Shown here piece by piece: positions 1 to 9,017 of a DNA stretch of 64,000 nt. Source of the DNA: a virus (lineage: Duplodnaviria; Caudoviricetes). The stretch spans positions 1,710 through 65,709 of IMG/VR virus record IMGVR_UViG_3300047160_011268. The stretch is one strand, 5' to 3'. Made by a program: the position numbers and the translations under genes. The first letter of the stretch is position 1. Every line of letters begins with the position of its first letter. The notes beneath the pieces were generated by a model that saw nothing but the letters and a program-made list of their open reading frames with translations, had not been told where the DNA came from and searched no databases.

Positions 1-2
1 GC

Positions 3-110
3 ACCCACGATGACGTCCTGGAATATCTAGCTTCTAGTGCTATCGATAATGCCGTCATCAGCGATGCAGCACAAGACACACTCACAGACCGCCGGGAGAA
101 TGAGGAATGA
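3..110 (+). CDS. 5'-truncated hypothetical protein
   Basis: Open frame from the window edge (THDDVLEYLASSAIDNAV...ENEE*); its TGA overlaps the ATG at 107 (ATGA). Confidence 0.4.
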   Translation, partial: THDDVLEYLASSAIDNAVISDAAQDTLTDRRENEE

Positions 111-355
111 CCGTAGGATTCACTTTGAAGATGACACTCTCACAAGCGCAGTTTATCGCCGGCCATCCCGATTTATCGATATTTACGCGGGAGGAAATTA
201 CCGAAGCGCTTGCCCGCCTGCAAGCCCCGAATGTCGTCGCGCGCATGCGAAACGTTCGAAATGAACGAACAATAGAGCGTTGGCGTGACCGGTTGGCACG
301 CCTGCAAGACGAACTTGAGACAATCGCAAATCAAGATGAGGCCCGTAAACTCTAG
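107..355 (+). CDS. hypothetical protein
   Basis: 82-aa ORF, ATGA-coupled to the upstream ORF; stop abuts the ribozyme. Confidence 0.55.
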   Translation: MTVGFTLKMTLSQAQFIAGHPDLSIFTREEITEALARLQAPNVVARMRNVRNERTIERWRDRLARLQDELETIANQDEARKL

Positions 356-412
356 GCCGAAACCGGCACGTTAGCGTGCTGGTCATGCCGTAATGCGGCA
401 TCTGATGAGGCT
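355..412 (+). ncRNA. hammerhead ribozyme, type II permutation
   Basis: GAAA 359-362; stem III 362-370/375-383 (9 bp, one G-U); GUC 382-384; stem I ATGCCG 385-390/CGGCAT 396-401; CUGAUGA 402-408; stem II 409-412/355-358. Confidence 0.9.
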
Positions 413-436
413 ACTAACCTGCGAGGAGCGATCAAC

Positions 437-937
437 ATGTACAAACCCAAGCATCTGAAACGTTGGACAATGCCGGCGAACTATTGTGGTGCCATGTGGC
501 CCAATCATTACTCAAGTGGCTTTGGCCGATCCCGCGATAGCGACTGTCTTGAGCGAAGCAACTTCCGCGTCGCGCTAGCTGCACTGGGCGGCGAGAGCGA
601 CTGCGTGACCGTAGCTCGCGAAAGCCACTGGGCCGTGGGCTGGGTTGAGTGGGTGGCAATTGAGGCGGACGGCACCCCCGAAAGTGACGAAGCGCTAGCG
701 ATAGCAGACAAGCTGCAAGAGCGCGTTAGCAACTACCCCGTGCTGAACGAAGAAGACTTCTCCACGTTGGAGAGGGACGAAGCCGACGAGATCTGGGCTA
801 ACTGCTACAACGTGAAGGAGCGGGTGCGCTACATCCGCGCACACGCTTCACAGTTCGAATTCCACGACTATGCAGATCTACTCAATTGCGTGCGTGGCAA
901 GTACTTCGCCGGGTATGCAAGTGAGTTAATCCAATAA
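437..937 (+). CDS. hypothetical early phage protein
   Basis: 166-aa ORF with GAGGAG RBS. Confidence 0.75.
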   Translation: MYKPKHLKRWTMPANYCGAMWPNHYSSGFGRSRDSDCLERSNFRVALAALGGESDCVTVARESHWAVGWVEWVAIEADGTPESDEALAIADKLQERVSNYPVLNEEDFSTLERDEADEIWANCYNVKERVRYIRAHASQFEFHDYADLLNCVRGKYFAGYASELIQ

Positions 938-989
938 TCATCATCGGCAACCACCCCTGTTGCCGCAGGGCAAAAACTGCGAGGACAAG

Positions 990-1220
990 ATGAAAATTCG
1001 CACAGACTTTTGGATGAAGCCTATCCCGCTACGGCATTTCGATTGGTCTGCTGTCGATGACGACAGCTACGACGGCCACGGCTCGCCTATCGGGCACGGA
1101 GCCACTGAAGCCGAGGCAATCAAAGACCTGATGTACCAACTAGCCGGCTACATGACCGATGAGGAATATGCGGCGGCAATGGGGCACGAACAACGCATCC
1201 GCGATGCAGAGGAGGGTTGA
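990..1220 (+). CDS. hypothetical phage protein
   Basis: GAGGA RBS, ATG at 990; MKIRTDFWMKPIP...GATEAEAIKDL. Confidence 0.7.
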   Translation: MKIRTDFWMKPIPLRHFDWSAVDDDSYDGHGSPIGHGATEAEAIKDLMYQLAGYMTDEEYAAAMGHEQRIRDAEEG

Positions 1221-1223
1221 ATA

Positions 1224-1418
1224 ATGTCGCCGCCCATCAGACGCAGTGCACTGATTAGAACGCCGCAGCAATGCGCCGATCACATGACCTGGCGCCGTCG
1301 CTCGCACAACAGCGCTTTGCAATTCGCTCACAGCCGCGAACTCGACGCCGATACTACGGAAATGCGTTTGTATTGGCGCGAAGTTATCCGTTTAATATGG
1401 GAGAAAAGCAAGTCATGA
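1224..1418 (+). CDS. hypothetical protein
   Basis: GGAGGG RBS; stop overlaps the next ATG (ATGA). Confidence 0.5.
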   Translation: MSPPIRRSALIRTPQQCADHMTWRRRSHNSALQFAHSRELDADTTEMRLYWREVIRLIWEKSKS

Positions 1419-1735
1419 ACCCGATCGTTGCCTTTGTGCTGGTCTGCACCACGCCGAACTATACCGTGGTCGATCGGCTGCATCAGAACGAAGGCGCCTG
1501 TTTCGAGCAGCGCGCCTTGTATCAAACCAGCCATCCAAGCGTGCAGCATTGTCATTGCGTGCGCATGGTCGACGAAAGATTGCCGTGCGGCCTCGTTCCC
1601 AATACCTCCGACGGTCAGCCGCTTCCTTTCACCGTTGTGTCCCCCGATGAAACGCGGGTGCCTGCGGGCGGCTTCATGACTTTGCCGTATGGTAAGGTCG
1701 ATCCCAAAGGCCCGCACTCGGTGAGCCCAAACTGA
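1415..1735 (+). CDS. hypothetical Cys-containing protein coupled to the PqqD cassette
   Basis: ATG 1415 overlaps the upstream stop; TGATG overlap with the PqqD-family gene. Confidence 0.6.
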   Translation: MNPIVAFVLVCTTPNYTVVDRLHQNEGACFEQRALYQTSHPSVQHCHCVRMVDERLPCGLVPNTSDGQPLPFTVVSPDETRVPAGGFMTLPYGKVDPKGPHSVSPN

Positions 1736-1959
1736 TGACCAAGCTCAAAAATCTACAGATCATTCGCGGTTGCCTGATCTTCGATCCGGCCTTGGGCACG
1801 TTTTACCGGGTCTCCGAAAGCGCGGTGTATGTGCTGAAAGCGTTGCAGAACGACGCCTCACTGCCGGCATTGCGGGCTTGCTACGCAGCACGTTACGCGG
1901 TGCCGCTGTCGACCGCAGCGCGCGACATTGAGCTGTTCTTCAATGAGGTAAGACGATGA
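1735..1959 (+). CDS. PqqD-family / RiPP recognition element (RRE) protein
   Basis: Pattern LIFDPALGTFYRVSESAVYVLKAL...YAARYAVPLSTAARDIELFF fits the three-strand, three-helix PqqD signature. Confidence 0.78.
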   Translation: MTKLKNLQIIRGCLIFDPALGTFYRVSESAVYVLKALQNDASLPALRACYAARYAVPLSTAARDIELFFNEVRR

Positions 1960-2936
1960 ACATCGCCGTGAGTGGCCTACATCGCGGCGACAACCCGCAA
2001 CCTGGACCGGCCGTTATTCGCAGCATCAAACGCGCTTACCCTGATGCGCAGATCATCGGCCTGAGCTATGACCCGCTCGAGTCCGGCCTGTTCAATGGCG
2101 ACATCGACGCCGCCTATGCCATGCCGTTCCCGGGTAAAGGCGCCGCTGCGTTATTGAGTCGCCTTGACGCTATCCGCAAGGATCATCGCCTCGATATGAT
2201 CATGCCGTGTTTGGATGCGGAACTGCCGAACTATCTCGATAGTACGGATTACTTTAAATTGCATAGGATTAAAGTCCCAATTATGAATAAATTGGCGTTC
2301 GAGCGCCGCGGCAAGGGCAAATTGCCCAAGCTCGGGGCCAGCGCCAGGGTGCGGGTTCCCAAGACCCAAACCGCTAATACCCTGGACACGGCCTATAAAG
2401 CCTGTGAGAGCGTCGGCTATCCATTATTTCTCAAAGGGCAGTATCATGGCGCTCTCCGCATATCGTCGCCCAGCGAGGTCGCTAATGCGTTTGCGGCCCT
2501 ATGCCCTGTTGTGGTGCAATCATTGGTTGAAGGCGAGGATGAATACGACGTTGTAGGTGTAGGCGACGGCAAGGGTGGCATCATTGCCTCTTGTTCCATC
2601 CGTAAGATTATGGTCACCGCCGCCGGTAAAGCCTATGGTGGCATTGTCGTTGACGATCCCGTCCTCTACCGTCACGCTCGCGCCCTCATCAAGGTATTGC
2701 GTTGGCGAGGGCCGTTCGAGTTGGAATTCGTTAAAGGGCCGCATGGCCACGAACTGATCGAGATGAACCCCCGGTTCCCGGCTTGGGTCGATTTCCCCAG
2801 CCAATTGGGTTGCAACTTACCTGCCTTATTGATCGACCCGGCCTTGCCCTGCAGCAAATGCCGGCCGGGCATGATGTTCATGCGCCATTGCGTTGACTTG
2901 GTCGGCCATTTGTCACGTTTAGCCGAGGTGCACTAA
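1956..2936 (+). CDS. ATP-grasp ligase (carboxylate-amine ligase type)
   Basis: YPLFLKG, VVQSLVEGEDEY, GPFELEF, LIEMNPRF motifs. Confidence 0.9.
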   Translation: MNIAVSGLHRGDNPQPGPAVIRSIKRAYPDAQIIGLSYDPLESGLFNGDIDAAYAMPFPGKGAAALLSRLDAIRKDHRLDMIMPCLDAELPNYLDSTDYFKLHRIKVPIMNKLAFERRGKGKLPKLGASARVRVPKTQTANTLDTAYKACESVGYPLFLKGQYHGALRISSPSEVANAFAALCPVVVQSLVEGEDEYDVVGVGDGKGGIIASCSIRKIMVTAAGKAYGGIVVDDPVLYRHARALIKVLRWRGPFELEFVKGPHGHELIEMNPRFPAWVDFPSQLGCNLPALLIDPALPCSKCRPGMMFMRHCVDLVGHLSRLAEVH

Positions 2937-4213
2937 TGCTGTTGCTGTCAGACGAGCTTGGCCAATCCGGTGCCGGCGCCATTCGCAATGCCTATAACCG
3001 TCAAACCGTCGCCTGCTCGAGCATCGACGGCGTGCCGGTCGGCAAGCTGGTTGCGCACTATGGGTCGCCGCTGTTCGTGTTCTCCGAGCGTACCATTTTG
3101 GCGACGGCGAGACGGGCAAAACGCGCCTTCAAATCCGTCTATCCCGATACTCAATTCGCCTGGTCCTACAAGACCAATTATCTGCGCGCGGTTTGTGCTG
3201 TGTTTCATAGCGAAGGTTGGATTGCCGAAGTGGTGAGCGAATTCGAGTATCGGAAGGCCAAGCCGGCCGGCACGCCGATCATTTATAACGGTCCGTGCAA
3301 GTCCAAGGCCGGCATCAATCAAGCGATCGATGACGGCGCCGTGATCCAGATCGATCACTGGGACGAACTGGCGCTGATCGAGGCGCTCGATCGTCCGGCT
3401 ATTGTGGGCGTGCGCCTTTGGACTGATACCAAGTATGCGCCGGTATGGAGCAAGTTTGGTTTCGCCTTGGACAATGGCGAAGCGTCGCGGGCGATTATGC
3501 GCATCGTTACTAATCCTAAGCTGGGCTTGCATACGCTGCATACGCATATTGGGACGTTTGTTACTGAACCGAAAGCTTATGCGATCGCCGCGGCACGTTT
3601 ACTATCACTACGGCAATTACTACATCGGCAAACCGGCTGCCTGGTGCCTTGCATCAATCTCGGCGGCGGCTTTCCAAGCGGCGCTCGGCTGCATGAGCAA
3701 CCCGAAGGCGCATCGGTGCCCTCGATAGAAGCTTACGCCAAGGCCATTGCCGGTGAATTGAATCGGCTGCCGCGCAAGCTAAGGCCGTTACTGCGGCTCG
3801 AAACCGGCCGCCATCTGATCGACGACGCCGGCTATCTGATCACGTCGGTGGCTGCGGTCAAAGCCGGTAGCTACATTGTCGATACCGGCATTCACCAGCT
3901 CTACACCGCGCCTTGGTTCCGCATCAATGTCTCGCCAACTCGGGGCGGGCCTTGTGAATCTGTTAAGCTATTCGGCAGTTTGTGTATGAACATTGATGTA
4001 ATCCGTGATCGGGTGGAGTTGCCGTCGCTTGAGGTCGGCGATGCTTTGGTGCTGCATCCGGTTGGTGCCTATAACTTGACCCAATCGATGCAATTCATCG
4101 GCTTGCGGCCGGCGGTAGTGATGATCGGCAAGCAAGGTCCCGAGGTCATACGACGGCGCGAGGAACTGAGCGATCTTGAGGGGCCGGAACATGACCGACG
4201 ACACCATTCTTGA
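2936..4213 (+). CDS. PLP-dependent decarboxylase, LysA/ornithine decarboxylase (group IV) fold
   Basis: SYKTN (PLP lysine), HTHIGT, NLGGGF, ETGR, GSLCMNID, GAY motifs. Confidence 0.9.
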   Translation: MLLLSDELGQSGAGAIRNAYNRQTVACSSIDGVPVGKLVAHYGSPLFVFSERTILATARRAKRAFKSVYPDTQFAWSYKTNYLRAVCAVFHSEGWIAEVVSEFEYRKAKPAGTPIIYNGPCKSKAGINQAIDDGAVIQIDHWDELALIEALDRPAIVGVRLWTDTKYAPVWSKFGFALDNGEASRAIMRIVTNPKLGLHTLHTHIGTFVTEPKAYAIAAARLLSLRQLLHRQTGCLVPCINLGGGFPSGARLHEQPEGASVPSIEAYAKAIAGELNRLPRKLRPLLRLETGRHLIDDAGYLITSVAAVKAGSYIVDTGIHQLYTAPWFRINVSPTRGGPCESVKLFGSLCMNIDVIRDRVELPSLEVGDALVLHPVGAYNLTQSMQFIGLRPAVVMIGKQGPEVIRRREELSDLEGPEHDRRHHS

Positions 4214-4278
4214 ATTGTCACGGTTGTACCGTGGCGTCGAGCAGCGGCTGAAAGCCCAACACAGAGGAGAACTATTCG

Positions 4279-4464
4279 ATGAAGAACGATTGGTATATGG
4301 CACGAGAACGCCTGAAAAATCCCGGCTGGACCGGAACGGCCCCACCGAATGACGACTATGACAAGATCGAGAAGGACAAGCAGCGCAAGGACGACGCCAA
4401 GGAGGGCTTTGACGATACCACCGAGGAGAACTGGGCCAATAACGGCGGAAGGAATGCACCATGA
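4279..4464 (+). CDS. small charged (Asp/Glu/Lys-rich) protein
   Basis: GAGGAG RBS; 61 aa; ATGA overlap with the next gene. Confidence 0.6.
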   Translation: MKNDWYMARERLKNPGWTGTAPPNDDYDKIEKDKQRKDDAKEGFDDTTEENWANNGGRNAP

Positions 4465-4700
4465 AATATCGGGTACGAGTGACGCGGCTGCGTGAGCAGG
4501 AGTGTGAGCTGTGGCTTGATGCGGCTAATGAGGAATTAGCGATCGATAAAGCTATGGAGATGATTGACGATGTCGCAGCGACGATATGGCAAGACAGCGA
4601 CACTGAGCCGCACACTTATGGTGTTGACGACATCCGCCCGGGCGACAAGTCGGACCGGCCTTGCGCCCGGGCCTATTCTTCGGTTAACTCTCCCGGTTAA
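4461..4700 (+). CDS. hypothetical protein
   Basis: 79-aa ORF coupled to the upstream gene. Confidence 0.6.
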   Translation: MKYRVRVTRLREQECELWLDAANEELAIDKAMEMIDDVAATIWQDSDTEPHTYGVDDIRPGDKSDRPCARAYSSVNSPG

Positions 4701-4713
4701 CCAATGGAGGGTT

Positions 4714-4896
4714 ATGATGGCGAATCGTTACGGTGAGCGGAAGATTTATGATCAACAGCTCAAAAAGCATGTTTGGGCTGCCTATGACCGGGAGTTGCGA
4801 GCCGATTGTAGTATCCATGATACCCGCAAGACGGCGCGGCAGATTGCCCGCGTTCTCAATATCGAAGATAAGCAGCGCAAAGTTTCGGCTGCGTAA
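4714..4896 (+). CDS. hypothetical protein
   Basis: GGAGG RBS 4706-4710, ATG 4714. Confidence 0.55.
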   Translation: MMANRYGERKIYDQQLKKHVWAAYDRELRADCSIHDTRKTARQIARVLNIEDKQRKVSAA

Positions 4897-5035
4897 GGGA
4901 GCGACAGTTTCACCATGTCAGCCGGTGTCTGCCATCGGGACAGCGAAAGCTTCAAGGCTTAGTTCGGCGTCGCTCCCTTTTGCCTCTCCCGGAGGCATGA
5001 GTCGGTAGCCGTGAAACTAAGCAAAGCAGACAACC
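4895..5035. ncRNA. candidate structured RNA, family unknown
   Basis: Pairings 4895-4905/4969-4979 (11 bp), 4926-4932/5026-5032, 4957-4964/5015-5022, 4906-4913/5011-5018; hairpin 4981-4997; GAAA-loop hairpin 4942-4951. Confidence 0.4.
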
Positions 5036-5123
5036 TTAACCCTTAAGCTTGACAAGCAAAACCATTTTATCATTTCACAACTCTATGCAATATTACCGTT
5101 TGCATCTAATAGGAGGACATCCG

Positions 5124-5342
5124 ATGCGAACTAGACTAACGCTTGCTGCCGTCGCCGGCATTATGTCGGCGGGAACGGCGATGGCGGCGCCGATCTCGAT
5201 CGCTTTGCCGCACGGTAAAGATGCGATTAAGGTTGTGCAACGCGGGCCGTATTATCAACCCTATTACACCCAACCGGCGCCGACTTGCGGCTTTTGGGGT
5301 AAGGGCTGCGCCCAGCAACCGCGGCATCACAGGGGGCGTTAA
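5124..5342 (+). CDS. small secreted peptide
   Basis: AGGAGG RBS; signal peptide MRTRLTLAAVAGIMSAGTAMA; Tyr/Pro-rich segment and a Cys pair. Confidence 0.7.
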   Translation: MRTRLTLAAVAGIMSAGTAMAAPISIALPHGKDAIKVVQRGPYYQPYYTQPAPTCGFWGKGCAQQPRHHRGR

Positions 5343-5353
5343 GCCCCCCTTTT
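5331..5353 (+). terminator. putative intrinsic terminator
   Basis: GGGGGC-gttaa-GCCCCC stem followed by CTTTT. Confidence 0.55.
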
Positions 5354-5421
5354 CCTTTGACAAACGATTTACAAATAGATTAGCTTTACATCTTCTACTC
5401 ACCAATGGGGAGTTATCTGAA

Positions 5422-5622
5422 ATGATGAAGACGTTAGCTCTTGCCGGTGTTTTGGCAATTGCCGGTCTCGCATCTGCCCAACCGGCAAATGCGCATTATC
5501 ACGGCTATGGTTACGGCTATGGCTATGGCCCGCATTACTATCATTATGGCTATCGTCCCTACGGCTACGGCTACGGCTACCGGCCGTACTATCGGTGGCA
5601 CCACTGGCATCACGGTTGGTAA
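5422..5622 (+). CDS. secreted Gly/Tyr/His-rich peptide
   Basis: Signal peptide ending PANA, then HYHGYGYGYGYGPHYY...WHHWHHGW. Confidence 0.75.
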   Translation: MMKTLALAGVLAIAGLASAQPANAHYHGYGYGYGYGPHYYHYGYRPYGYGYGYRPYYRWHHWHHGW

Positions 5623-5627
5623 GGAAC

Positions 5628-5843
5628 ATGATCGCACTGGCAATTTCGCTACTCTGGCTCCTGATCGGCGTCGTCATTGTCGCCTTGATCATTTGGCTGG
5701 TGTTGTACGGCTTGAAGAACGTTGCCGGCATTCCGGTGCCGCAACGCGCCGAGCAAGCGGCCTGGTTCATCTTCTTGATCCTGATCGTCATCTATGCCTT
5801 GTACGCGGTCGAAGGCGGCAGCCTACATTCAGTCCTGCGCTAG
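5628..5843 (+). CDS. small two-TM membrane protein
   Basis: AAGGA RBS; two hydrophobic helices. Confidence 0.7.
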   Translation: MIALAISLLWLLIGVVIVALIIWLVLYGLKNVAGIPVPQRAEQAAWFIFLILIVIYALYAVEGGSLHSVLR

Positions 5844-5872
5844 TTGACACCCGGTCGCATGCGTCGTAAGGT
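5844..5872 (+). promoter_or_regulatory. sigma70-type promoter
   Basis: TTGACA 5844-5849, 17-bp spacer, TAAGGT 5867-5872, upstream of the run leading to PolA. Confidence 0.6.
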
Positions 5873-5907
5873 CACGCTGTCCTCGTGTAACTTGCGGGCG
5901 GGCTGAT

Positions 5908-6132
5908 GTGGTCGATGAGATAACTTACCTTCGTATCCTGCGGGCCGCAAAGCGTTATGCCGCGTGGGATAAGTCAGACCCCTTCAGTCTCGCCCGTGCT
6001 CTTTGCCACATTGACTTCGGCCTCTGCGGTTACACCGAGGACGGCAAGGAAGCCTGGTATGACGCCGAAGAGCACGTGACGATGCGTGATGGGGTGGTGA
6101 CCAAAACCTATACCAATGTAATCCGGCTATGA
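5908..6132 (+). CDS. hypothetical protein
   Basis: 74-aa ORF; ATGA overlap with the next gene. Confidence 0.5.
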   Translation: MVDEITYLRILRAAKRYAAWDKSDPFSLARALCHIDFGLCGYTEDGKEAWYDAEEHVTMRDGVVTKTYTNVIRL

Positions 6133-6611
6133 CGCTCGAACCTGAAGATCCCTGGAAGGACCGCTGGATGATCGCGATTTGGTGGTTCGTGGTCTTTATC
6201 GCCGCCTTCATCTTCCTGTATTGGTCGGCGCATGCCGATACCCATCCGCCCGATATTCAGAACTGGTTCGCCTATCTCTCCAATCATATCAATGGGGCTT
6301 GCTGCGGCGAGGCTGATGGCTATCCTGCCGAGGTCGTGCATATGCCGTCGCCGCCAGTTAATAATCGTGCCAAGACCGACGGCGTTGCCTGCATTACCGA
6401 TCCGGCCGGCAAGGATGTCGTTGTTCGCGGCGTCACCATTAAAACCAAGCATGCAGTTAAGGGTAATCTTTGCGCCACATTTTCGTGGGACCAGTTAACC
6501 CAAGAGAAGCAAGGCAACCCGTTCGATCATGCCTACGTCTTTGTTCATCTCCGTATCGATGACACTATCGACTACCTGTACTGTGTCGCTCCGCTGCCAC
6601 AGGCATCCTGA
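6129..6611 (+). CDS. membrane-anchored Cys-rich exported protein
   Basis: N-terminal hydrophobic helix ending AHA; CCGEADG and three more Cys. Confidence 0.7.
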   Translation: MTLEPEDPWKDRWMIAIWWFVVFIAAFIFLYWSAHADTHPPDIQNWFAYLSNHINGACCGEADGYPAEVVHMPSPPVNNRAKTDGVACITDPAGKDVVVRGVTIKTKHAVKGNLCATFSWDQLTQEKQGNPFDHAYVFVHLRIDDTIDYLYCVAPLPQAS

Positions 6612-8501
6612 ATGTTGTTATTCTTGGACATCGAAAGCTATTACGATCAGGCTTACTCCCTGAAGCGGATGGACCCTGCATCCTACATTCTCGATCGACG
6701 CTTCGAGGCGATCATGATGGGCGTGGCGTTCGAGGATGGCCGCGGAGGATTAATCGATGGGCCGGATATTCCCGAAGCCTTATCCAAGCTCGAGCCGCAG
6801 CGCACTACGACCGTTACTTATAACGCGCTGTTTGATAATTCTATTCTTGCTTGGCGCTATGGCTTTGTGCCTGCACGAATGGTCGATGCATTGGGGATGG
6901 CGCGCGGGCTGTTATGCCATCGGCTACGTAAGTTTGGTTTGGCTGATGTTGCGGATTGCCTTGGGGTAGGGCAAAAGACCCATGAGCTGAACGAGGTCAA
7001 AGGGCTGCATCGTGAGCAAATCCGCCAAGATCGAGATCTATGGCGTCGTTTCGGAACCTATTGTTCGAACGATACCGCACTCCTCAGAGCGATCTATATT
7101 AAGCTACATAAAGAATTTCCTCGCGAAGAATACGAAATTATGGACAGCGTGCTCCGTACGTGTATCGAGCCCCGGTTTCAATGCGATATACAACTTCTTC
7201 AACAGCACCTCAGGGCCGTTCGTGATGAAAAGATACGTCTCTGCGCAGCTGTGGGGGTCGACCGGGACCGCATTAGCGGTAACAAAACATTCCTTGAGCT
7301 CCTCACAGCGACCGGCGTTGAAATCCAAACTAAGCCGGGTAAGAATGGCAACGAAATCCCGGCAATTGCCAAAACCGACAAGTTCATGACCGAACTCCTC
7401 GAACATGAAAATCCGGAGGTCCAATGTCTAGCATCAGCGCGGCTCGGTATAAAGAGCACGTTAGAAGAGCAGCGTACCGAGCGGCTTATCAACATTGCCT
7501 CGCTACCCTGGACTGGCTCTACACCCTTGATTCCGATCCCTTTGAAATACTCCGGGGCGCATACCTGGCGGCTTGCGGGAGATTGGAAGATCAACATGCA
7601 GAATCTACCCTCGGCGCGGATGGGCAATCCAGTGCTCAGGCGAAGCCTCATGGCGCCCCCGGGACATACGATCGTCGTCGGTGATCTGGCGCAGATCGAG
7701 GCTAGGCTGAATGCCTGGTTCTGCAAGGAGACTATGCTGCTCGACGAATTCAAGAACAAGCTCGATCCCTATAGCCAACTGGCGTCGCAAATCTTTCACC
7801 GTGCGGTTGATAAATCGACGTTTAAAGGCGTGGCGCGGCATATCGGCAAAGCCGCGATCTTGGGCTGCGGCTACGGCATGGGCGCGCCCAAGTTCTATGA
7901 CAGCGTGCTGCGACAAAGCCGGACCACCTTATCGTCGGAGCAATTCAAGACCCTGTCCGAACTATGGACGCCGCAAGCGGCCAAGCTGGCGGTTGATACC
8001 TATCGCGAGCGTTATCATAAGATCCCGCGGCGTTGGGCTTTGCTCCGACAACATCTGCATGGTGCCTTTGTTGGCGACATGGGCGAGGCCAAGCCCTATC
8101 CCATTACGATCGGCTACAATAAGGCTGAACGCTACGGCTATGTCCGCGGCCCCGGCGGCCAGGAAATGCGCTACGGCACGCCGCAATGGCTGGAGAACGG
8201 CGAATTGTGGTACTGGATGGGTGGCGTGCCGCACAAGCTTTATGGCGCCGCGTTGCTCGAGAACATCATCCAGTTCCTTGCCCGCATGGTGCAGATGGAG
8301 ATCATGCTGCGGCTGCGCTCGATCGGGCTGCAGATGATCCATACCGTGCATGACGAGCTGGTGTTCATGGTGCCGACCGAGCGGGTCGATGACGCTATGG
8401 CCAATGTCAAGCTGCAAATGACGACGCCGCCGGACTGGTGCGCATCGTTGCCGCTCGAGGCCGATGTCTCGGCCGGCCAACGCTACGGCGACTGCAAGTA
8501 A
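6612..8501 (+). CDS. polA: family A DNA polymerase with 3'-5' exonuclease, no 5'-3' exonuclease
   Basis: FLDIESYY (Exo I); motif A GDLAQIEARL; motif B RHIGKAAILGCGYGMG; motif C TVHDELV. Confidence 0.97.
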   Translation: MLLFLDIESYYDQAYSLKRMDPASYILDRRFEAIMMGVAFEDGRGGLIDGPDIPEALSKLEPQRTTTVTYNALFDNSILAWRYGFVPARMVDALGMARGLLCHRLRKFGLADVADCLGVGQKTHELNEVKGLHREQIRQDRDLWRRFGTYCSNDTALLRAIYIKLHKEFPREEYEIMDSVLRTCIEPRFQCDIQLLQQHLRAVRDEKIRLCAAVGVDRDRISGNKTFLELLTATGVEIQTKPGKNGNEIPAIAKTDKFMTELLEHENPEVQCLASARLGIKSTLEEQRTERLINIASLPWTGSTPLIPIPLKYSGAHTWRLAGDWKINMQNLPSARMGNPVLRRSLMAPPGHTIVVGDLAQIEARLNAWFCKETMLLDEFKNKLDPYSQLASQIFHRAVDKSTFKGVARHIGKAAILGCGYGMGAPKFYDSVLRQSRTTLSSEQFKTLSELWTPQAAKLAVDTYRERYHKIPRRWALLRQHLHGAFVGDMGEAKPYPITIGYNKAERYGYVRGPGGQEMRYGTPQWLENGELWYWMGGVPHKLYGAALLENIIQFLARMVQMEIMLRLRSIGLQMIHTVHDELVFMVPTERVDDAMANVKLQMTTPPDWCASLPLEADVSAGQRYGDCK

Positions 8502-8534: not shown

Positions 8535-8569
8535 GTGGTATATAACCGCAGCGGTGAAAGGTCGCACTT

Positions 8570-8734
8570 ATGGAACATCACTGTGACCACTGTCATAAGC
8601 AAATCCCAGCCGATGAGTATATCGACAACATCGGCCTTTGCGACGAATGCTTGCGCCGCGAAGAATCCACTCTTGACGCCGAACTTGATGAACGCACGGC
8701 GCCTGTATCTCGCCGGCCCCATACGTGGCATTAG
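8570..8734 (+). CDS. small CxxC...CxxC zinc-finger-like protein (below the ORF-track cutoff)
   Basis: MEHHCDHCHKQIPADEYIDNIGLCDECLRREE..., 54 aa. Confidence 0.55.
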   Translation: MEHHCDHCHKQIPADEYIDNIGLCDECLRREESTLDAELDERTAPVSRRPHTWH

Positions 8735-9017
8735 GAACTACCAGCAGCGTTTTGCCCAAGCCGCGGCTTTGCTGCGCTACGAAGGCTGGGACGTCTTCAA
8801 TCCAGTCGAGGATGACGAGGTGCTGCGCCGCCACGGCATCGAAGGCAACATCCGGTTGTGGCTCGAGCGTGATCTTGGCTGGATCTGCCGCTGGGCCGAC
8901 GTCGTCGCCCTATTGCCGGGGTGGAAGAAGTCCGCCGGCGCCGTTGCCGAAGAGAGAACCGCCCGTGCCTGTGGTATCGCGTGCTGGGAGTTAGGGCTGG
9001 AATATGACTTTAAGTAG
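8688..9017 (+). CDS. DUF4406 / nucleoside 2-deoxyribosyltransferase-like protein
   Basis: LYLAGPIRG, FNPVE, DLGWICRWADVVALLPGWKKSAGAVAE. Confidence 0.78.
   Translation: MNARRLYLAGPIRGIRNYQQRFAQAAALLRYEGWDVFNPVEDDEVLRRHGIEGNIRLWLERDLGWICRWADVVALLPGWKKSAGAVAEERTARACGIACWELGLEYDFK

Follow-up and report, generated by a model that had tools for sequence, protein, structure and literature searches.

ATP-grasp enzymes form an acyl-phosphate that is attacked by an amine, and alpha-decarboxylases dependent on pyridoxal 5'-phosphate (PLP) require that the alpha-amine be free. The amino acids decarboxylated by FigC, SbnH, and AcsE are already linked through their side chains; the substrate of FigC is the ligated amide N-citrylornithine, and the enzyme is not an ornithine decarboxylase (PMC7857480). 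Here, we describe a phage cassette in which a FigC-like fold-III PLP decarboxylase is encoded behind an ATP-grasp ligase and a PqqD-family protein, the latter of the type that serves as recognition element (RRE) for peptides that are made by the ribosome and modified after translation. The cassette lies near the start of a 64-kb stretch of DNA (the window) taken from a 65.7-kb virus contig, IMG/VR record IMGVR_UViG_3300047160_011268, which CheckV rates as 100% complete. An earlier note, made from the letters of the window, had singled out this triad and treated it as a system of the phage. According to our comparison, the triad instead forms the core of an operon that is widespread in bacteria, and the phage copy descends from it.

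The bacterial operon is illustrated by the loci of Labrys monachus and Stutzerimonas stutzeri, in which PqqD, ATP-grasp, and decarboxylase genes are followed by one for a 730-aa fusion of a urea-transporter-like domain and an M23 peptidase (UT-M23). In a tblastn census of 80 species-representative loci, to which look-up loci were added, about 90 bacterial loci share the triad and its order, which is therefore no product of chance. The neighborhood comparison between phages and bacteria proposed in the earlier note supports a coupled cassette. The decarboxylase gene lies 3' of the ligase gene wherever the contig allows, and PqqD lies 5' of it where detectable. UT-M23 is found downstream in 71 of the 79 bacterial rows of the tree presented below. 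The parent operon is present in at least 8 bacterial phyla, and its full form comprises 5 to 7 genes, including those for membrane proteins. Full-text searches of the literature, including papers on RREs and graspetides, returned no description of it.

To place the phage copy, we constructed a maximum-likelihood tree from the concatenated ligase and decarboxylase sequences (80 rows, 825 columns, LG+C20); L and P numbers are our labels for the loci and proteins of the comparison set. The phage groups with the bacterial loci L006, L092, L088, L007, and L008 with a Shimodaira-Hasegawa-like approximate likelihood ratio (SH-aLRT) support of 100, and L011 is sister to this clade. Identity to L006 is 43% for PqqD, 66% for the ligase, and 67% for the decarboxylase. 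The clade is nested among UT-M23-bearing rows from Xanthobacteraceae, Labrys, and other Alphaproteobacteria, and each of its bacterial members, as well as L011, is free of UT-M23 for at least 8 kb downstream. The metagenome-assembled genomes (MAGs) of L007, L008, and L011 contain no UT-M23 homolog genome-wide, and their ligase gene is single-copy; thus, this sub-lineage functions without the membrane partner. UT-M23 is also absent from the whole 65.7-kb phage.

Loci of this group have mobile surroundings, with transposase and prophage genes close by. L088 and L089 adjoin genes for a terminase, a DUF5681 protein, a serine recombinase, and a transposase; L087 has resolvase/rve genes on one side and DDE transposase, DUF968, and YqaJ genes on the other; L092 adjoins an IS110 element; and L006 is wedged beside the secE-nusG-rplK operon. 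On sequence grounds, then, the phage copy descends from a mobile sub-lineage of the operon in Hyphomicrobiales-type Alphaproteobacteria.

A small gene distinguishes this sub-lineage. In every member but the basal L011, an open reading frame (ORF) of 77 to 112 aa abuts or overlaps the start of PqqD. Its product carries a signal peptide of the Sec type, a P.P..GFWGKG.G motif that is strongly conserved, and a His/Arg-rich tail, and most versions also contain QI[VA]L[SAT]D[ED] (e.g., QIVLSDE). This GFWGKG family comprises 104 clusters at 90% identity, all of them metagenomic “hypothetical proteins,” and corresponds to no Pfam family. The loss of UT-M23 thus coincides with the gain of a discrete, exportable small protein, and this GFWGKG protein is the strongest candidate for a peptide that the system may modify. 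One family member, P0220, is encoded on a probable phage contig of 128.7 kb, described below.

Other genes accompany the four-gene unit formed by the small protein and the triad. A conserved secreted GDSL/SGNH hydrolase, which may be part of the mobile module, is encoded next to it, at varying places and in either orientation, in L006 (10564-11526, minus strand), L007 (4139-5125, plus strand), and L087 (7636-8598, plus strand). In L097, a gene for an MFS_3 (EntS-like) transporter lies 3' of the unit (3499-5019), and its product might serve for export where UT-M23 is lacking. The contig that encodes the ligase P0024 and the small protein P0220 (ENA ERZ26871208; 128,744 bp) also encodes T4 gp2-like, TnsA-like, and Amidase_2 proteins as well as many small ORFans, and it is probably a second phage carrier of the four-gene unit. 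Its decarboxylase is split into frames of 200 and 197 aa separated by a 210-nt gap.

The limits of the phage segment can be read from a related phage, L094 (IMGVR_UViG_3300005842_000022), whose DNA polymerase is 63% identical and whose genome is collinear with the window from the homolog of 960-1220 through the replication genes. In L094, the homologs of window positions 960-1220 and 4191-4352 are about 460 bp apart, and the gap holds an unrelated acidic ORF of 170 aa (7422-7934). The segment at about 1221-4190 is therefore specific to the phage studied here. We conclude that it was acquired horizontally, as an insert into the early region, and that the site, judging from the two gene contents, is a variable accessory slot. 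GC content at the three codon positions fails to distinguish the cassette from the phage genes or from donor-clade genes and therefore provides no dating signal.

Three genes had been reported in the earlier note, and all three are present, as co-directional ORFs, at the positions listed in Table 1. Their stop/start overlaps are likewise as described: TGATG (TGA at 1733-1735, ATG at 1735-1737) before PqqD, ATGA (1956-1959) before the ligase, and TAATG (2934-2938) before the decarboxylase. Yet the limits assigned to the unit need revision at both ends. Because the ORF at 1415-1735 (orf106) overlaps the PqqD start, the coupled unit begins further upstream, where an ATGA also joins orf64 to orf106. 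At the other end, the stretch proposed for coexpression, 1415-4464, overruns the unit. The ORF at 4191-4352 overlaps the 3' end of the decarboxylase gene (ATG at 4191, last 23 nt) and conflicts with the ORF at 4279-4464. Its product is 61% identical over 31 aa to the translation of L094 7933-8025 (the L094 gene lies at 7834-8043), so the gene that follows the cassette is probably 4191-4352 rather than 4279-4464. There is no strong-stem terminator-like site within the cassette, and the first on the plus strand is at 5332-5348.

Table 1. Positions of the cassette, its flanking features, and the small ORFs of related bacterial loci (window coordinates unless a locus label is given).
Feature	Position	Strand	Remarks
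Inserted segment	1221..4190	.	orf64, orf106, and the triad; missing from the syntenic relative L094; variable early-region slot
orf64, ORFan, possibly not a real gene	1224..1418	+	left end of insert; no Pfam, PHROG, or NCBIfam match
orf106, ORFan, candidate substrate or partner	1415..1735	+	coupled to PqqD; position of the bacterial GFWGKG protein
PqqD-family RRE, 74 aa	1735..1959	+	PF05402, AlphaFold2 model, TbiB1 match
ATP-grasp ligase, 326 aa, compact form	1956..2936	+	PRK12767, fold matches, 46/50 conserved columns
Fold-III PLP decarboxylase, FigC/FslC-like, 425 aa	2936..4213	+	PF02784 and PF00278, PDB 7kh2
Native phage gene, outside cassette	4191..4352	+	right junction; homolog in L094
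GFWGKG small ORFs	L088:9451-9732; L006:7483-7719; L092:4073-4312; L097:3-278; L099:3477-3815		directly upstream of PqqD

The rest of the genome encodes a DNA polymerase, a helicase, a primase/helicase, an exonuclease, a methyltransferase, an internal virion protein, a tail fiber, a portal-like adaptor, and a terminase. Given this gene set, and since no integrase or recombinase is detectable in the phage, it is a tailed phage and probably virulent. In the first part of the window (1-6700), there are no sigma-70-like promoter matches, compared with 4.7 +/- 1.6 in shuffled sequences, and the early region may use another promoter type. The replication module also contains a nucleoside 2-deoxyribosyltransferase-like gene (8535-9017; phrog_355, 4.6e-19), which is common to L094 and thus unrelated to the cassette.

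The decarboxylase provides the clearest link to a characterized enzyme. It matches PF02784 (1.9e-23) and PF00278 (6.8e-10), and among PDB entries it is closest to FigC/FslC (7kh2; 6.2e-46, 160 bits), followed by diaminopimelate decarboxylase (DAPDC; 7.7e-29) and BtrK (5.4e-16, 61.6 bits). It remains below the equivalog threshold of TIGR01048 lysA (178.5 versus 297.9) and below the cut-off of NF041039 FslC (164.1 versus 500 bits). The catalytic motifs, which the earlier note had called intact, are indeed present in the decarboxylase: K79, HTHIGT, GGG at 243-245, R292, C350, and VGAYN. In the alignment to FigC, the residues K63, H198, G237-239, R290, and C354 match those of the phage enzyme; they correspond, respectively, to the PLP lysine, the HIGT histidine, the GGG phosphate loop, the ExGR arginine, and the cross-dimer cysteine (roles from PMC7857480). 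Of 100 columns conserved at 95% or more in 79 bacterial orthologs, the phage protein keeps 96, compared with 99 to 100 in control rows. Two stretches of the bacterial orthologs are missing from it, namely, an internal one of about 27 aa and the tail at the C terminus, and loss of the latter fits the overlap of the native gene 4191-4352 with the last 23 nt.

The N terminus is where the phage decarboxylase stands apart, the front part of its tail being lost. In 77 of 81 sequences, the N-terminal tail contains YxxPx[ILVM], placed 40 to 51 residues before the GSPLFV strand, and 3 more have W for Y. The phage is the only sequence of the 81 without an aromatic-x-x-Pro in this tail: it starts with MLLLSDELG, and an in-frame stop at 2894-2896 excludes a longer N terminus. 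The tail peptides are MLLLSDELGQSG and, for bacteria, YSPPTITGELGR. In L082, from a Polyangia (myxobacterial) MAG, ligase and decarboxylase are fused in one frame of about 900 aa (118-2811) with YxxPxI in the linker; hence, the motif needs no free N terminus.

The ligase matches ATP-grasp families of Pfam weakly (ATPgrasp_Ter, 17.3 bits) and PRK12767 of NCBIfam, labeled “CPS-like” (for carbamoyl-phosphate synthetase), at 4.7e-13. It has 1,738 homologs, the nearest 63% identical, and the nearest set (47 to 63%) is bacterial. The AlphaFold2 (AF2) model has a predicted local distance difference test score (pLDDT) of 85. Its Foldseek matches include PylC, biotin carboxylase, 2pn1 (CPS-like), L-amino-acid ligases, and PurK/PurT, and because all of them score at about 1e-16, the substrate class is not readable from the fold. 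As for the decarboxylase, the earlier statement that the catalytic motifs are intact holds for the ligase, in which the family-invariant residues K160, E257, E269, N271, and R273 are present; these are expected to bind ATP and metal. The phage ligase keeps 46 of 50 columns conserved by the same measure (control rows, 49 to 50), lacks the near-invariant W-G loop and a five-residue segment, and carries Y164H.

The PqqD protein scores 30.6 bits against PF05402 (cut-off, 23.4), and its best NCBIfam match is the lasso PqqD chaperone. An AF2 model built on a 33-row alignment (pLDDT, 91.3) has a beta3-alpha3 topology, with strands at 8-10, 14-17, and 22-25 and helices at 28-38, 43-54, and 58-73. The best PDB match is the lasso RRE TbiB1 in complex with its leader, with a template modeling (TM) score of 0.75 and a root mean square deviation of 2.0 A over 68 columns; the Foldseek probability is 1.00, but the E-value, for so short a protein, is just 1.4e-2. 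The earlier note had made its case depend on this 74-aa protein folding as an RRE. Both the model and its superposition on TbiB1 predict an RRE-type fold. The phage protein keeps 6 of 6 invariant or near-invariant family positions, which leaves the phage with an intact RRE and a decarboxylase tail devoid of the motif. As a gauge of relaxed selection on PqqD, the ratio of its divergence to that of the ligase is 1.5 to 2.0 for the phage and 0.8 to 1.4 within the clade, but deep bacterial pairs reach similar values (1.5 to 1.8).

Upstream of PqqD, the phage has orf106 at the position of the bacterial small protein. It is preceded by GGAG 11 nt upstream of its ATG and has a gene-like GC content by codon position (0.61/0.46/0.70). 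A search of 5.8e9 clusters retrieved only orf106 itself, and an all-against-all HMMER comparison with 1.84e9 representatives added one repeat match. That match, P0229, was discarded as spurious, being a translated tandem DNA repeat, and a hit in the ESM Atlas (score, 0.81) was at chance level. Alignment of orf106 to the bacterial small-ORF family with hhalign gave E-values of 0.5 to 0.6, and the GFWGKG motif is missing. Accordingly, orf106 is a positional candidate only for a precursor peptide bound by the RRE; the bacterial relatives hold a better one. The preceding orf64 has an atypical GC content by codon position (0.49/0.52/0.62). Its start, MSPPIRRSALIR, loosely resembles the bacterial decarboxylase tail (5 of 12 residues), a likeness that may be due to chance.

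Searches for further families among the cassette proteins set other limits. Pfam, PHROGs, and NCBIfam yielded no match to an acyl carrier protein (ACP) family; none of the cassette proteins belongs to a PHROGs family; and PADLOC gave no match at E-values up to 0.01 for the five cassette proteins and the bacterial small protein. The families of the lasso B2 cysteine protease and of the C (asparagine-synthetase-like) cyclase are absent from the cassette.

We also searched for other phage copies. Among 50,697 GenBank phages, blastn and tblastn retrieved no match to the cassette DNA or to the ligase. The decarboxylase retrieved weak LysA-like matches (26 to 28% identity) in unannotated Gram-positive “phage” records, which are probably host DNA. 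Pattern scans of IMG/VR, run with the ligase alone and with an alignment of 14 sequences, revealed no other viral contig. The earlier note knew of no characterized phage system with this triad, and we, too, found none in the literature, in GenBank phages, or in the IMG/VR scans. Ours is thus the only phage copy found in these two collections, and both its carriage by a phage and the mobile four-gene sub-lineage are new to the literature as far as searched.

An ATP-grasp ligase followed by a fold-III decarboxylase is most naturally read as ligation and then decarboxylation, the order of events that the earlier note had proposed. In this scheme, the ligase would activate a carboxylate and join it to the side-chain amine of an ornithine-, lysine-, or diaminopimelate (DAP)-like diamino acid. 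The carrier of that carboxylate would most likely be a segment of a peptide or protein held by the RRE. After ligation, the diamino acid would keep its free alpha-amino-acid end, from which the decarboxylase would strip the alpha-carboxyl, as FigC does with N-citrylornithine, to leave an amide-linked diamine. Candidate acceptors in the phage would be orf106, the N-terminal tail of the decarboxylase itself (LLLSDELG), or a host protein. The cassette would be expressed with the early genes, and during infection it would either alter a peptide or protein or produce a small amide.

Several results are consistent with this scheme: FigC is the best solved relative of the decarboxylase, PylC ranks with the best structural matches of the ligase, L082 has the two enzymes fused, and the nearest bacterial relatives encode a discrete small protein at the position of a precursor. 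Others weigh against it. By its predicted fold, the ligase is as close to biotin carboxylase, carbamoyl-phosphate synthetase, and PurK-type enzymes as to PylC, and orf106 has no homology to the bacterial small protein. The phage sits on a long branch (0.72; median, 0.13), and the donor lineage was assigned from MAGs and metagenome contigs only. The phage has lost YxxP; if this motif is the docking site of the RRE, the RRE-guided chemistry may have been altered or lost. The joint claim has two parts, namely, that the phage carries an acquired, trimmed but intact operon core from the mobile alphaproteobacterial sub-lineage, and that this core performs RRE-guided ligation and decarboxylation on a peptide or protein. 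We regard it as an even call. A bolder version would have the module re-aimed by the phage after it shed the membrane partner, the secreted small protein, and the tail motif of its bacterial ancestors, with the RRE picking orf106 or a host protein and an amide-linked diamine being placed on an acidic residue for early takeover or counter-defense; this we consider unlikely, and propose only tentatively.

The same genes could instead form a small-molecule pathway, in which a free organic or amino acid and a free diamino acid yield an N-acyl-diamine, PqqD acts as a scaffold, and the product is an auxiliary metabolite following the logic of a siderophore, a polyamine conjugate, or a compatible solute. 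We hold this to be possible, if doubtful. The nearest characterized decarboxylases, FigC, SbnH, and AcsE, work on small ligated amides or esters (PMC7857480), and ligases of small molecules (PylC, L-amino-acid ligases, and PurK/PurT) are among the fold matches of the phage ligase. Moreover, most bacterial loci have no discrete precursor gene yet encode UT, a small-solute-type channel domain, and L097 has its MFS_3 exporter gene 3' of the unit. However, the phage and almost all loci have kept PqqD, whose fold is nearest to leader-binding lasso RREs; the conserved small protein of the nearest relatives overlaps the PqqD start; and the M23 peptidase domain of the canonical operon implies that the pathway involves a peptide bond at some point. 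Ordinary polyamine or lysine metabolism, with the decarboxylase acting on free DAP, ornithine, or lysine to boost the host supply for replication, is much harder to defend, and we deem it highly improbable. Functional polyamine enzymes, among them decarboxylases of the alanine-racemase fold, are indeed encoded by phages and giant viruses (PMC9992855), and lysA is the best NCBIfam match by E-value. Its score is nevertheless far below the cut-off, and no DAPDC or ornithine decarboxylase comes near FigC as a match. Strict coupling to an RRE and a ligase in about 90 loci, with the ligase fused in L082, speaks against it as well, and the survey of polyamine enzymes in the virosphere names no ATP-grasp or PqqD partner (PMC9992855).

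It is also improbable, in our estimate, that the cassette is passenger DNA from a mobile island that drifts unused, with its lost motif, lost loops, and long branch being signs of early decay. Such a view would account for a sole phage copy in IMG/VR and GenBank phages, for a close relative (L094) without the cassette, and for the long branch along with the missing YxxP motif, W-G loop, and C-terminal tail. Against this stand three open frames, 142 of 150 highly conserved columns together with all catalytic residues, and preserved overlaps; an unselected gene would not stay intact at about 35 to 55% amino-acid divergence from its nearest relative. PLP decarboxylases participate in thymidine hypermodification in some phages, and the deoxyribosyltransferase-like gene at 8535-9017 and a DNA methyltransferase gene lie nearby, which raises the idea that an amino acid is attached and decarboxylated on a modified base, as in phages with aminoethyl or putrescinyl thymidine. 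We rejected this reading, which we give next to no weight, because the phage has no hydroxymethylase of the thymidylate synthase (ThyA) family. In addition, the neighboring nucleotide genes are also found in L094, which lacks the cassette, and the cassette was copied directly from a bacterial operon that is chromosomal and has membrane partners.

If the bolder version holds and the phage has re-aimed the module, the result would be a polyamine-like, enzyme-written protein mark that has not yet been described, and the four-gene islands would represent a new class of Sec-exported modified peptides. The phage copy and the islands are minimal natural versions of the operon: three soluble proteins, to which the islands add a candidate substrate of 80 to 110 aa with a signal peptide. 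These small forms make an orphan operon that is hard to reconstitute experimentally tractable. The phage is, furthermore, a natural deletion mutant of the YxxP tail, which bears on whether the RRE docks on the decarboxylase. Should the cassette modify a protein or make an amide metabolite, it would add a new auxiliary chemistry to those of phages; should it be inactive, the operon core would be mobile cargo.

Among the systems with which the cassette can be compared, the bacterial operon is the closest, its triad being orthologous to that of the phage with the same order and coupling. Unlike the canonical form, the phage and its nearest bacterial relatives lack UT-M23, whereas the phage alone lacks both the YxxP tail of the decarboxylase and the GFWGKG protein. 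Among lasso B1 RREs (TbiB1; PDB 6jx3), TbiB1 gives the best superposition on the model of the phage RRE, and the YxxPx[ILVM] of bacterial decarboxylase tails is the recognition motif of lasso leaders (YxxPxL). This likeness comes from predicted fold and sequence, and the phage has no B2 protease, C cyclase, or YxxP motif. PylC and the L-amino-acid ligases rank among the best structural matches to the phage ligase model, and PylC forms an amide (isopeptide) between a carboxylate and the side chain of lysine; yet identity is only 14 to 17%, and biotin carboxylase and carbamoyl-phosphate synthetase domains score equally.

The two pathways that resemble the cassette in their chemistry are those of butirosin and rhizoferrin. 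In butirosin biosynthesis (BtrI/BtrJ/BtrK), on which the earlier note had modeled its proposal, a carrier holds the amino acid on which an ATP-grasp ligase and a fold-III decarboxylase work, and BtrK is a detectable homolog of the phage enzyme (5.4e-16; the sequence comparison covers BtrK). The logic of ligase plus decarboxylase carries over. The kinship is looser: BtrK is far more distant than FigC (5e-16 versus 6e-46), the phage has neither an ACP nor thioester chemistry, and PqqD is a peptide binder and not a thioester carrier. In Francisella, rhizoferrin is made by FigA/FigC (FslA/FslC), where, as with SbnH and AcsE, a ligase forms a side-chain amide and a fold-III enzyme decarboxylates the ligated product. 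FigC is the closest solved relative, with all PLP and catalytic residues in common. The differences are that the phage ligase is an ATP-grasp enzyme rather than a siderophore synthetase of the type that is independent of nonribosomal peptide synthetases (NIS), that a PqqD-type RRE is present, and that the phage has no siderophore transporter. By analogy, the system would work most like the ligate-then-decarboxylate pair FigA/FigC and more loosely like BtrJ/BtrK, while being a member of none of these systems.

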